Positions 28,801 to 34,800 of a DNA stretch of 64,000 nt are shown here, piece after piece; position 1 is the stretch's first letter, and every line of letters starts with the position of its first letter. The position numbers were made by a program, and so were the translations under genes. The DNA comes from Perkinsus olseni (lineage: Eukaryota). The DNA lies in assembly GCA_013115125.1 (NCBI GenBank), contig JABANN010000129.1, positions 1 through 64,000 of the forward strand, in the 5' to 3' direction. The notes under the pieces are model-generated. The model had not been told where the DNA came from. It ran no database searches and worked only from the letters and a program-made list of their open reading frames with translations.

Positions 28801-31800
28801 CGATCTAGCTTTATACTGGAAGGGTTGTGGAGGTCCTCCACTGGAGGATCTTAACCGCTATAAAGCTGTTAAGTATTCACTAGGGCTCGGAAACTATCTG
28901 ATTCATCTGGATGAGAAGCCCCTGGGCTGTTACGCTCGGAGCGTGTTCTCAGCTCCTCTCGGCGAGGGATCGCCGTGCAGCACACGAGGGACTCCGCTGA
29001 ACGGAAGGCAACCACAGTGTGGAACACACATGGCCGCTTAGTGAGGAAATGGAAACTTTTTGAAGATTTCGCTTGGCCCCCAGAGCCTCTGGGCCAGAGG
29101 CATGGTTATTCGGAATAACCTATTCCATGGGTTGGATCCAATGATGAAATATGAATCAGATCAGCATTCGATGGTGCGAACCCCAGCAAGAGCAAAACCG
29201 AAGACGACCGAGAGCAGAAGCTGGCCGTCAGGATGAAGTATCAACGACGGGTGACCTCCAGCTCACTGCCCGTTCTCAGACCTCCCATCACTCACACATC
29301 CATCAGCTATCCCCTTCACGACCTCCACCGCCTGCTTCACGTCCAGCTTACCCACAGCAAAGTAGTCCAAGAAAAACAACGGCTCCGCGCCGTGAACGAC
29401 CTGCAGGGCGATTACCCCACCCGCCAAGGCCAGGCTGTTGTTATTACCACATCATTAGCACACATCGCCACGAGATCGATCCCGACAGTATCGTGCTTTC
29501 CGATCGTATTAGCCACCTTCAACTTCGTACCAACACCATCTGTACCCGACACCAGCACCTACCGTCACAAATGACATCAATAACAAAATCGAAAGAACAA
29601 AAAAAAGAAAAAATCGAAAATGGAGTCACTAATAACTTATTTCCGCCAAAGTTGACAACTTCAAGTTGTATTACTGGTTCGTCGTATTCGCCGCATTTCG
29701 CCAGGTCACAGAAACCGCCAAAGTCACCCAGGCTGCCTCCCATACCCGGGCGTTGTGTCCCTGAGAAAAAACTTCGACGGCAAACCGCCATCAAAGCGAC
29801 TCCGTGCGGAAAAGTGCACACCGTGACCCCCGGTGCCCGCGCTCCTCGGACCCCCTCCCCTGTACTACTTTTCACAAGCGGTTTAAATCCATCAACAGCA
29901 GCCTCGCCAGCCTCTATATCCACACCAGCTGCCAGGTACCTGATGAGGGCGCTGCTCGTCGACGGAGCTCAACCTCTCACGTAATGCCGCTCTTCGCACT
30001 CTTCGGTGTGTCGCTGCCGGACTCCGAAACTGATAAAAAAATGGGAAAATCTCCTTCACCGACATAACCTACACGAGCGGCTTTTGGACACCCGAGAGAG
30101 CCCGGAGCACATGGCGATGTCAGTGCGATAATGGACACCTTCGAATGTGATGGAACGAACCGCACAGTACCTGAAAGATACGCCCGGATGCTCACTCAAG
30201 AAGATACTCCGAGCCCGAGCCTATCTAGATTCTGCGCACAGCGAAGATTTTACCTTGCCGCGACCAACCAGTAGCACCAACCAAGAAAGAATTCCGCTGC
30301 TCCCTGTGACTGTGATAACGACGAATCGCCAAATGACAATTGGCAGTTGTCAAGCTGATATCAGCCAAGAATTTCCCGTCATTCGCCAGGTTCAACCTAA
30401 GATACCCTCCACCGTCAAGCCTCACGCTCTTTCGGCAGCGTCTTTGACCGTCTCCCCTCCCGCAGTGATCGACAGAACCCGACCACCGCTGGTGACGATC
30501 ACACCATTATCATCATACTGAGCTCCAGCGTAGTATCTGATGACTCGAGGCTGGGAATCTTCCGCGTGCGCAAAGATACCCGCTTACACCTGGACGCCTG
30601 GAACGCATTCTGCCCTGTTCACACCGTTTATAAGATACCCTTTATTGAACTTCCCCGGATACCCACCGCTGGCCAATACAACAGTAACCTGCATGAAACG
30701 AGCAAGAATTGAACCCGAGACCTTTGGATACGTGAACACGTCCTCTAACCACTCGGCTAACAACACCGCTTCTCACCGAAGATCCTTTTATCCCCTCCAA
30801 CCTTGCCGATAATTTCGATCCCAATTGCTTTCCAGCCGTGCAGGACAGGAAAAGGTCATAACTACAATCCGGCGCTCGACAACCCTCCCACTTCCATATT
30901 GCCACTACCAATCAATCTTATTCGACAACAACAGCGGTAGCAAAGCCTGGGTTTCAGGATCGCCAAAACGACAGTTATACTCCAAAACTTTTGGACCTGA
31001 TCATCGCGAATGAAACGCTTATTCCGTCAATAACCATGATCAACCTAAGATACGCTTTCCAACCATCTCACCGTGCGGGGTCATCATCAAACCAATGTAC
31101 AGGCAACCCGAGAACGGCCGCCCTTCCTTCGCCAAGCCCTCAATAGACGGCGCCACAATCCTCTCCTTAATACTGATCGATGAGGGGAACTTTGCCCTCC
31201 CCCCACCCAGCAGCATCGACCTACTTCTCCAATTCTGACTTAGTTAACAAAGAGTTGGTAACAAAAGCTCCCATACCACCCGTATTAGGCCCCTCGTCAT
31301 CATTAAAACTAAGGGCGAGGAGCAATCGACACTCCCGGCTCTCCCTATTGTTCACTACACTCTCTTATGATCCCTGGCCGGTGGTAGTACAACAAAGCTA
31401 CGGCCATTGGTCAGGGCGAACACGGAGACCTCCGCGCCTTGCAAGAGTTCCTCAACCACCACAGGGCCGCCATAGAGGCCTGGAAGGAGGGGAGACTGCA
31501 GATAAAGTTGGACCATATCCGTCTGCCCCGTTCAAACGGGAGCATCGGAAGGAACGGTATGAAAATAAAGCGGAGCGATGCGGACAAAAAACCGATTACT
31601 GAGGGACAACTGGGTGGGACCTTTCTTCACTGCGCCACGAAATTCCTACTGAAGATCTCCCTAACCGCCGCCTTCCCCTGCTGGGCCGAGTCAGCTACAA
31701 TGACTCCCTTCCCCGCAGCCAGGCCAGAGGCCTTCACAACAACTCCGTTGCCTGAATAGCACAACTTTCCATCGAACGACCCAGGTTCAATCCCCACTGG

Positions 31801-34800
31801 AGCAGATTTTATCAACTGCTTTTTCTCCCTCCTCTGGCGTCACTGCCGTCACGAACTCAGCCGTCGGAATGCCATGACGTCTCATGAAATCTTTCGCCCA
31901 TGATTTACTCGCTTCAACCTCGGCTGCCGCTGCCGTCGGGCCAAACACTGGAATCTGGCAATTCCTCGGTGAAAAATCCGCCCCATTCAGCATATCTTAG
32001 GTTGAAGCTGGCATCAGACAGAACTCTACTACCCCCGCTTCCTGCACAACATCAGCAAGTCCCTCCGCCAGCGGCTGCTCCGGTCCCACCACCACCAAGC
32101 TGATGTGCTTCTTCCGGCAATACCCAACAATAGTCTCTTTCGAAGCGTTTACCGCGGGTATCTGCGCTTCTCCACATCAACCGACCCAGGTTCGATCCCT
32201 GCGTCCACTACATTAATTATTTTCTCATGTTCTCCAGCATTCCCAGGAGCAACATAAACTCTCTTAACCTTATGACTCGCCGCAATGGCCGTAGCCAAGG
32301 CGTGCTCCCGGCCACCCGACCCCACCACCAATACCTCAACACGACCAAATCCCCAGCGAACCACCCCCTGCAAGCACTACATTGGAGCCCCCTTCCGAAG
32401 ACAGGCCATAACAGCGCTCGTTCCCTCTGCCCTCCATCCACAACGTAAAGGCCCTCTTACAGACTACAGTGCCACCCAGTGTCGGGTAGTCACCGGTAAA
32501 GTACCTTAGAATGACCGTGGCCCCATCGAAGATCCTGGCGAGAATTCTCCTGCTCACCAGTCCCCAAGGTGCTCCGGAATGGCCTTATGTAAGCTGTCGA
32601 CAGTCTGGTAGACCACCTAACACAGCCACTACAGCTGATACGATTATCGAGGCAGCGGGCCCGCTACTACCTGGACCTTGGCAGTACAGTTCTCAGGTTG
32701 TATTATCTCCGCCACTTTATCCTCCAACTCCCTTTGAGTGAATCCTTCATAAATGCGCTTAACCTGACCGGGAGAGCGGAAGTTCGCACCATCCGTCACG
32801 CGCCACGAAATTGTCTGCCGCAGCGTTCTGAGATAACTGTCTACATAATTAACATCCGAGTCGGCATCCTGCAGGCACTGTTCATAAACCTCATGGATAA
32901 GGTCGTCCTTCCCTCTGCTCCTCAGCAACGCTATGGCCGCCTTGAACGCCACGAAATCGGCCAGTTTAGCCATATCAATGCCTGATCGACTTCATCCGTA
33001 TCTTGCATGATTCGACCTCAAGATACCCCACCATAAGGATCAGGATAGCAGATCAACGGCGCTGAGGAGACGATGACGATAGACGACGGCTTTAATCTCT
33101 CCAGCGTTTTGATGATTGCGTTTTTCAGTGTATTCCCGCGTACCTGAGACATTCAAAGAGCAGCCTCCTGGCAGAACTTCTTAAAGACAAGATCGGCTTC
33201 GGATCTACCTAAGCCGTTGGACTCTAAACTCACAAACGCAGACCTTTCGAGAGGAACTGCCGAACTCGGTCGGGTCATCCTCATTTCCGGTCAACAGCGT
33301 TGTTGAGCTGCGAAAAAATTCGCTGACCACCAAGTTTTCGACCTCTAAGATGCTCATCATGCATCGACCTCAGATACTACAATGGAGTCATCCAGGGCCA
33401 CCAGTACTTCCCCTTCCCTGACGGTGCCATAGTGAACATCGTAGGCGTGGAAGGTCTTCGCTTCACGACTCGCATCCTCTTGAATGAACGTTCCTGAGGT
33501 CCCAGGTTCGATTCCACCGTCATGCATTAAGCCTTTCTACTCAGTTTTGCATCTTTGTGTACCACCTTCTCCTCCCTGACCTCCTGATCTAGCACCTGCG
33601 CGCACAGAGAAGAACTAAACATCAGAAACAAGCCCGTCGACCGTGGCCTGAGAACCACATTCTCAAAAAACAACGAGGCAGCTTCTGCCAGGGAAAGTCT
33701 GTAGGAGGGGGTAACACATAAACGACTACATCCCGCAAGAGAGAAGAATCTTCCGTTTTGCGAAAGAATCAGCGGCCCTGCGCAGATGCACAAGCTACCT
33801 CCGTGTTGATTCCAGTCTCCATCGCCCTCCTCTGCTCTCTGTATAGATCCTCTCTATACTGCTTCACCATACCATAGAAGGCCAACTCGGAAGTGTTGGG
33901 GATAAACGAAAAGACAGTGTTCTTGAACGATCCTCCGACTTCCCTGACACCGAAAAGAGGTGAATGACGAGCGTCTCTTATATTAATCGACTTCCAGAAT
34001 GACCCCCTACTTCCTCTCGAACGGGTGGAACGCGGAGCTTCGGCGAGAGTTCAAATTGTGGGGACTATCGGTGGCGCTCCTCCCGCGAAGATTGTCGCAG
34101 GCTTTCAGTTATGAGAGAAACACAGCCTTCTTACTTGACTCTCTCCATTGTTCTGTTTGCTAGCAGCCGGCCGAGTCTCTCACGTTCACGATAAACCTGA
34201 ATTTTCCCATGGTTGACCTACGCCAGACGAGCTCACTCACGTCAGCATCATTCCCTCTGGAGAAGTATATCCTCTCAAATGAGCACTGGCTCAGTTTCGG
34301 GGCAGCTGGCAGTACGCCTGACAGAGCCAAGAAAGGATGACTTCTATACGCCAGGGGAACTAGCTCAAATGGTAGAGCGCTCGCTTAGCAAGCGAGAGGC
34401 ACCGGGATCGATGCCCGGGTTCTCCATTTTTCACTCAACCCCTTACGTTCCACTGACACTTGCCCTGAAGCTCTGACGATGAGTGCCGCCCCAGCTGGTA
34501 GAGACTCAACCTTCTCCACCCCGAAGACACTCCGAATCAACGGCGCTTCGGACGCCACCACTACAATCTGAAATGGAATACCACCCTTGCTGGCGCGAGA
34601 TTACTATACGTCCCGCCCGGACTCTAGGATCAGAGGAGATCCTCTAAAAAAGAGAATCATTCACTATCGGTATCCTATGGCGGGATATCCACAGCAAATG
34701 ACTCTCTAGTATTCCTATCTTCCACAACCTCCAATATCATAAGTCGGAGAGGAGTAGAGAGCAACATATGAAATCCGCTCTTTGCGGGTCTGTCACTAGG

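Follow-up and report, generated by a model that had tools for sequence, protein, structure and literature searches.

Transfer RNA (tRNA) genes nested in the introns of protein-coding genes are known from nematodes, insects and mammals. From yeasts, so-called extra TFIIIC (ETC) sites are known, which consist of a B-box only; the criterion for them is occupancy by TFIIIC, and most are intergenic. The origin of new spliceosomal introns is an old open question, and the known sources are mostly transposon-like introners. In the available part of the study on the introners of Amoebophrya, Perkinsus serves only as a comparison genome (PMC7789003). For Perkinsus marinus, the available part of another paper counts the near-identical genes of five tRNAs at 349 (Leu), 116 (Gly), 46, 23 and 9 and describes Dada elements, DNA transposons of 4.7-11 kb whose insertion site in tRNA genes is the A-box region (PMC3706591). 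A literature search, with supplements outside its range, returned no report of tRNA-derived introns or introners in Perkinsus. Here we analyzed a stretch of 64,000 nucleotides from Perkinsus olseni (contig JABANN010000129.1, positions 1 to 64,000 of the forward strand), called the window in the following. It contains nested tRNA genes as well as tRNA relics in introns of minimal size, and we regard this finding as real and statistically sound. The gene in question, referred to as the purine gene, is located as follows:

26135 to 39075, minus strand: host gene, a PurF (Bacteroidetes-like)-GARS-AIRS fusion, defined by the mapping of protein P0001 and by tblastn

The protein P0001 (1119 amino acids; "hypothetical protein FOZ61_001163 [Perkinsus olseni]") was found via a PurF-like exon of the window. 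It maps entirely to the minus strand in 34 exon blocks of 100% identity, which yields 33 GT-AG introns between 26186 and 33798. In this annotated part of the gene, the introns total 4466 nt and the 34 exons 3348 nt; 19 of the 33 introns are 41-56 nt long, and the short introns sum to 914 nt. Residues 1-275 of P0001 are 53% identical to the C-terminal half of a PurF from Dokdonia (P0005), residues 284-705 are colinear with bacterial PurD, and AIRS domains follow according to Pfam. The N-terminal PurF exons, which extend to about 39075, come from tblastn with the Dokdonia PurF only, and no annotated protein model covering them was found.

Two tRNAs, tRNA-Ala(AGC) and tRNA-Met(CAT), were identified in the window by ARAGORN and Rfam, both above the gathering score of 29 bits of the Rfam family RF00005. 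No further tRNA-like matches were obtained with Rfam over the window at E<=10. Because Rfam E-values are multiplied by 4227 families and thereby lose short or degenerate matches, we built our own tRNA covariance model, termed R1, from 18 class-I tRNAs of a Klebsiella phage and the two tRNAs of the window. The cloverleaf structure was supplied and the model was run over the window with filters off; as the calibration was short, its E-values are rough.

34354 to 34426, plus strand: intact tRNA-Ala(AGC); ARAGORN; RF00005 57.6 bits; R1 68 bits, E 3.9e-20
34318 to 34446, minus strand: 129-nt intron with the antisense tRNA-Ala; GT..AG ends, stop in the unspliced frame, homology of the flanking exons
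57705 to 57777, minus strand: intact tRNA-Met(CAT); ARAGORN; RF00005 67.6 bits; R1 78.3 bits, E 1.5e-23

The tRNA-Ala gene is directly followed by TTTTT (34427-34431), and its 3' end lies 20 nt from the first base of its host intron. Without the 73 nt of the tRNA gene, 56 nt of the intron are left, close to the length of an ordinary intron. Being located upstream of the region covered by the annotated P0001 model, the intron rests on homology only: the exons on both sides align to consecutive residues of the Dokdonia PurF. A preliminary description of this DNA had assigned 73 of the 129 nt of this intron to an intact tRNA-Ala, on which ARAGORN, Rfam and R1 agree. For tRNA-Met, an antisense location in a putative intron of a plus-strand gene, from 57690 to either 57830 or 57847, is plausible. 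A GTGAGT donor at 57690 and AG sites at 57830 and 57847 can be read from the sequence, the 3' end of the tRNA lies 15 nt from this putative donor, and the plus-strand exon upstream of it encodes an EF-hand (PF13202, 26.4 bits). With respect to the B-box consensus GGTTCRANNCC, tRNA-Ala has one mismatch, and tRNA-Met is absent among the matches with at most one mismatch. The T-loop of tRNA-Ala begins with A instead of the usual T (ATCGATG); T-loops of this type recur in relic-like T arms at 5852-5873 (plus strand) and 12865-12880 (minus strand). A shared cassette around both tRNA genes was considered, since both host introns end in GGCTCNGTCAG, yet it was rejected. The likeness of the flanks was reached by 215, 91, 1534 and 336 of 2000 shuffles in the individual comparisons, and GGCTCNGTCAG is not enriched in the window at one mismatch (4 places versus 4.9 expected).

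A full-length but degenerate tRNA occupies most of another, annotated intron of the purine gene.

30689 to 30776, minus strand: 88-nt intron, annotated in P0001; junction colinear with PurD
30694 to 30766, minus strand (sense to the gene): degenerate tRNA (pseudogene) of 73 nt; R1 16.2 bits, model positions 1-73

This copy, which had been noticed before as a decayed tRNA, was confirmed by R1 from end to end, with E-values of 0.0058 for the window and 0.0012 for the gene alone. It has an exact A-box and a B-box with one mismatch at a distance of 44 nt, the only such pair in the window (0.07 expected). Many of its stem pairs are broken or non-standard. In a stretch of 151 nt around the intron, Rfam found nothing at E<=10, and ARAGORN reported nothing for the intron at thresholds of at least 80% and only a different, poor parse at 75%. 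The element is a pseudogene and not a tRNA gene, and as a full-length relic it is individually supported.

Shorter pieces are found in three further introns, A, B and C, and in one additional copy, D. In the following, T-arm core refers to CCCAGGTTCGATCCC; the longer pattern common to introns A, B and C is CCCAGGTTCRATYCC.

31752 to 31797, minus strand: intron A, 46 nt; core at 31778-31795 (plus strand), antisense, beginning 2 nt past the GT
32162 to 32211, minus strand: intron B, 50 nt; core at 32183-32201 (plus strand), antisense; R1 10.2 bits, model positions 50-64
33494 to 33540, minus strand: intron C, 47 nt; core at 33498-33515 (plus strand), antisense, beside the 3' splice site; R1 7.9 bits, model positions 52-62
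47840 to 47883, minus strand: copy D; R1 11.5 bits, E 0.2, model positions 1-73 with a deletion of 34 positions

Each of the introns A, B and C contains one exact B-box on the plus strand, antisense to the gene, and no A-box inside the intron. R1 aligns 15 nt of intron B (E 0.58 for the window, 0.12 for the gene) and 11 nt of intron C (E 3.4 and 0.68, respectively), in both cases on the plus strand only, in agreement with the antisense orientation, and reports no match in intron A at E<=10 in either scan. Thus, the exact antisense B-boxes are present where the preliminary description had placed them, but the proposal made there that the three introns are largely tRNA 3' halves was not confirmed, since R1 aligns 15 nt at most and the sequences around the cores share nothing above chance. 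The spliced protein aligns without gaps to PurD or PurF over the junctions of introns A, B and C (that of C is colinear with PurF) and of the 88-nt intron. These four introns are therefore non-coding insertions relative to the bacterial homologues. The cores of intron B and copy D are identical in 17 of 17 nt, that of intron A is identical to each of them in 17 of 18 nt, and six bases 5' of the B-box are common to the four copies. By eye, four of five T-stem pairs can form in B and D and two of five in A and C.

In copy D, the core is joined to tRNA-like acceptor ends, with TTTT 2 nt past its end; the whole resembles a tRNA that has been truncated and has a T-run behind it. Copy D is antisense to the gene for splicing factor 3A subunit 2 (SF3A2), about 50 nt beyond the annotated stop codon of this gene (47792-47794; models P0119 and P0120), and hence the core is not confined to introns. 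The SF3A2 gene extends from 45138 to 47794 on the plus strand; the two public P. olseni models of it, P0119 and P0120, are partial and differ in splicing around 47533-47707.

The exact B-boxes are clearly above chance. In the annotated gene, three are found in the 33 introns, all in short ones, and none in the 34 exons. Shuffling the interiors of the introns, a control that had been proposed along with the initial observation, gave a mean of 0.055 B-boxes; among 5000 shuffles, 267 had at least one and none had three or more. The whole window contains seven exact B-boxes versus about 1.06-1.3 expected, and CCCAGGTTCRATYCC occurs in four exact copies and in nine places with at most two mismatches, where 0.38 are expected. 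At E<=0.58, R1 reports four matches other than the two tRNAs (the 88-nt intron, copy D, 5852 and intron B) versus about 0.6 expected. The short relics are thus supported as a set and not one by one.

Two of the sites outside the purine gene were also reported by R1:

5852 to 5873, plus strand: T-arm relic of the tRNA-Ala type; R1 10.4 bits, E 0.48, model positions 44-65
5683: exact B-box site; R1 8.7 bits, E 1.8, model positions 52-62

Further exact B-boxes are located at 43606 and 53983. The relic at 5852-5873 has the ATCGAT form of the T-loop, as in the tRNA-Ala of the window, and TTTT follows 8 nt later; the local GC skew suggests that both 5683 and 5852 are on the sense strand of the gene there. 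An antisense 12-nt copy of the A-box region of tRNA-Ala is present at 12765-12776. Together with the T-loop form at 5852, this copy indicates that relics of more than one kind of tRNA exist. The paralogous blocks at 12 kb and 15.5 kb do not cover the relic at 12866. Three duplicated blocks of 135-300 nt with 94-99% identity are found between 10999-13263 and 15099-16755, about 3.5-4.1 kb apart and with unrelated sequence between them. Relaxed ARAGORN searches at the 85% threshold returned 10 "genes", while 10 shuffles gave 4-13 (header line included), so that this approach showed no enrichment and was abandoned. Our own splice-aware gene predictors recovered 25 of the 33 known introns, otherwise over-split, and placed one exon inside tRNA-Met. 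Short "introns" predicted around 5683, 5852, 43606 and 53983 were discarded owing to this over-splitting.

Taken together, an intact nested tRNA gene (68 bits in a 129-nt intron), a full-length degenerate copy (16.2 bits in an 88-nt intron) and short T-arm pieces (cores of 17-18 nt in introns of 46-50 nt) coexist in one gene, and on the basis of these sequences, of copy D and of the Ala-type relic at 5852-5873, a tRNA origin of the intron elements is supported, for the short pieces as a probable one. The most economical reading of these states is colonization and decay: tRNA genes would nest in introns, mostly antisense, become pseudogenes and be trimmed towards the intron size of about 48 nt. 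We give this scenario about an even chance of being right. The decay series puts states that exist today into an order and is no process seen at work; this order is reasonable but unproven.

In such a scenario, tRNA genes would multiply to hundreds of nearly identical copies, which would spread through a compact genome. As near-identical tRNA genes number in the hundreds in P. marinus, new copies are expected to arise often, and since introns make up much of the tolerated space, many of them would land there. Copies antisense to the host gene might survive better because a sense tRNA in the pre-mRNA could be cut by tRNA-processing enzymes; this step draws on what is established about RNase P and RNase Z. 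Copies that lose their function would then be shortened by deletion, the introns being held to about 41-56 nt, and the T arm would stay recognizable as the part that is most alike among tRNAs. If colonization and decay is all that happened, the purine gene would be a neat example of how quickly a compact genome deletes sequence, and a warning to annotators that nested tRNAs and their relics occur inside real introns.

Several points weigh against this scenario. B-boxes with at most one mismatch are barely enriched in the window (36 versus 28.4 expected), and A-boxes are not enriched (3 versus 1.13 expected). As exact matches are enriched and one-mismatch matches are not, the excess sits in the exact matches. 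If copies decayed slowly and neutrally by substitution, many imperfect ones should be present as well; the pattern found would suit either young copies that lost sequence through deletion or a motif that is under selection. With the tRNA model R1, introns A and C are not significant singly. In all six pairwise comparisons, the flanks of the core in A, B, C and D are no more alike than shuffled sequences, and the extended homology past the 17-18-nt core that we had considered was rejected. Unrelated flanks fit different source tRNAs with a common T arm and equally well a motif that is kept for itself; isoacceptors often share T arms. Within the window, neither of the two tRNAs has the T arm of A to D, and no source tRNA of these four copies was identified there. 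The orientation bias rests on few cases, with tRNA-Ala and the relics in introns A, B and C being antisense, tRNA-Met lying in a putative intron and one copy being sense. Finally, the series is drawn from a single 64-kb window, and both its direction and its reality are unproven. The impression conveyed by the preliminary description that the B-box is retained in every case is in part a matter of ascertainment, as it is the only part recognizable without the tRNA set of the species. Relics without a B-box would mostly escape notice as long as this set is lacking.

Alternatively, the elements may have created the introns in which they are found. In this case, tRNA genes or their 3' parts would have inserted antisense into exons and been spliced out at once, as introners are. 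Perkinsus tRNA genes or 3' portions would then themselves be introners that bring along or adjoin a usable GT and AG. The extreme intron density of the purine gene (33 introns in 3348 nt of coding sequence) and the recurrence of at least three short repeat families among the introns of this and other genes would suit such an origin. So would the position of the elements, since introns A and B have the core at a distance of 2-12 nt from the GT, the tRNA 3' end is 15-20 nt from the donor in both tRNA-bearing introns, and 73 of the 88 nt of one intron are tRNA-like. However, neither target-site duplications nor terminal repeats were seen by eye at the junctions of the five introns, and the copies are alike over 17-18 nt only and not over their whole length. 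In addition, the flanks of tRNA-Ala and tRNA-Met are not alike above chance, copy D is outside any confirmed intron, and the position of the core varies, being at the 3' end in intron C. We consider the creation of introns by tRNA insertion unlikely, and the same doubt applies to tRNA-derived introners in Perkinsus. If it nevertheless occurred, a share of the dense introns of about 48 nt would descend from Pol III genes and carry the B-box core as a fossil of this origin. An alveolate that parasitizes shellfish would then have gained introns by a new route.

A further explanation is that the B-box is kept for a function, for example as a chromatin site that binds TFIIIC or another protein as in the ETC sites of yeasts, whatever its origin. 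This might account for a conserved block that is limited to the core with unrelated flanks, for the exact match of the relics to a consensus from which the two real tRNAs of the window deviate, and for an excess of exact matches without an excess of one-mismatch matches. On the other hand, the copies were found by exact match, so that their perfection is partly ascertainment. Moreover, binding of TFIIIC is not known to explain the six bases 5' of the B-box that the four copies share, and the relics of the Ala type, with their non-T first loop position, have a poorer B-box. From this analysis, we regard a retained function as rather improbable; if it exists, it would represent a new layer of chromatin organization in an alveolate shellfish parasite.

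Other short repeats also recur in the window.

3172, 3336, 7738, 7816, 7904, 8155, 24714, 24940, 25520, 47660 and 48633, plus strand; 38141, 37961 and 32812, minus strand: AATTTCGTGGCGCGCGGTC
8074, 25302, 31992, 42884, 46451, 47260 and 47371, plus strand; 44300, 33377, 30405, 23336, 7675 and 5372, minus strand: GTATCTTAGGTCGAAGC

The AATTTCGTGGCGCGCGGTC repeat is found at 14 places with at most four mismatches, in both orientations relative to genes; both the purine gene and SF3A2 have copies of it in annotated introns. For GTATCTTAGGTCGAAGC, 13 places were counted with at most three mismatches, among them at least five introns of the purine gene in either orientation and, twice, a single SF3A2 intron; together with an inverted partner, it forms hairpins in some places. 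A variant of it that carries GGTTGAACCTGG resembles the antisense T-arm core.

The weakest explanation, a short intronic repeat or splicing-related motif that does not derive from tRNA and resembles a T arm by chance, appears very improbable to us: although other intron families exist, the GTATCTTAGGTCGAAGC variant with GGTTGAACCTGG is like the core of intron A in 11 of 12 nt and TCGA-type words are common in these introns, the chance that one family would match the nine specified bases of the B-box is estimated at well under 0.01, R1 reports neither of the other two families at E<=10, the core has no common branch-point-like position (5' in A and B but 3' in C), and both copy D and the 88-nt intron have tRNA features past the core, given which such a motif is unlikely.

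Some additional features of the host gene and the window were observed. The intron density of the purine gene is very high, at 33 introns per 3348 nt of coding sequence, and in eight of the 33 introns the donor is GTAGTA or GTAGTG instead of the usual GTAAGT type. The annotated 81-nt intron at 32764-32844 (minus strand) has a length divisible by three and can be read through in frame with the exons on either side; the Dokdonia PurF is without these 27 residues, and the segment carries the AATTTCGTGGCGCG repeat. Apart from a true intron, this may represent a segment that is retained or optional, or else a choice made in annotation. The PurF part of the protein is of the 632-amino-acid Bacteroidetes type, with 53% identity to the Dokdonia PurF over 287 aligned positions, and looks like a horizontally acquired sequence joined in frame to a eukaryotic-style GARS-AIRS. 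In a metagenome scan with P0001, the best 80 loci show 38-53% identity, to the PurF or the PurD part. No perkinsid locus was among these 80, and the PurD locus used for comparison (L002) is an uninterrupted gene of the bacterial type. The region of the PurF part contains, at 36222-36270 and 36556-36600, one perfect 24-nt inverted repeat with a 1-nt spacer and a second palindromic stretch; the latter has weak matches on both strands to an Rfam microRNA family, far below threshold. Tandem arrays are present at 43758-44257 and 3621-3964, one with a 25-nt unit (about 20 copies) and one with a 43-nt unit (about 8 copies).

Among known systems, tRNA-derived SINEs (short interspersed nuclear elements) have a body and a tail, neither of which is present here. 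A SINE promoter requires the A-box half, which is absent from the short copies, and these share no body with each other. The 88-nt intron and copy D are similar to ordinary tRNA pseudogenes in being degenerate tRNA-like sequences in non-coding DNA. The introners of Micromonas, Aureococcus and Amoebophrya are likewise short sequences that recur in introns, including those of an intron-rich alveolate relative. As far as the available part of the source goes, they are similar over their whole length and often carry direct or inverted terminal repeats (PMC7789003). In the window, the four copies in 64 kb share 17-18 nt, and terminal inverted repeats or target-site duplications were not visible at the junctions of the five introns when inspected by eye. 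Like the ETC sites, introns A, B and C contain a consensus B-box without A-box or tRNA body; here these candidate sites are intronic, whereas the ETC sites of yeasts are mostly intergenic.

As with nested tRNA genes elsewhere, a Pol II intron here contains an intact Pol III gene that is antisense and has its own terminator (tRNA-Ala and probably tRNA-Met). A difference is that the tRNA gene makes up most of its tiny host intron, at intron lengths of 129 nt and about 141-158 nt, and that neighbouring introns within one gene contain copies which are degenerate or fragmentary. To call this an undescribed system, as was done initially, is too strong, because nested tRNA genes and tRNA pseudogenes are ordinary and the amplification of tRNA genes in P. 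marinus has been published (PMC3706591). The available part of that paper is silent on introns of host genes, and no Dada sequence was seen in the window, where none was sought. The amplified tRNA families it describes belong to the same genus, and such numbers of near-identical genes imply dispersal and turnover, the supply that colonization and decay would need. With its dense short introns, amplified tRNA families and tRNA remains inside introns, Perkinsus is thus a good test case for the origin of introns.

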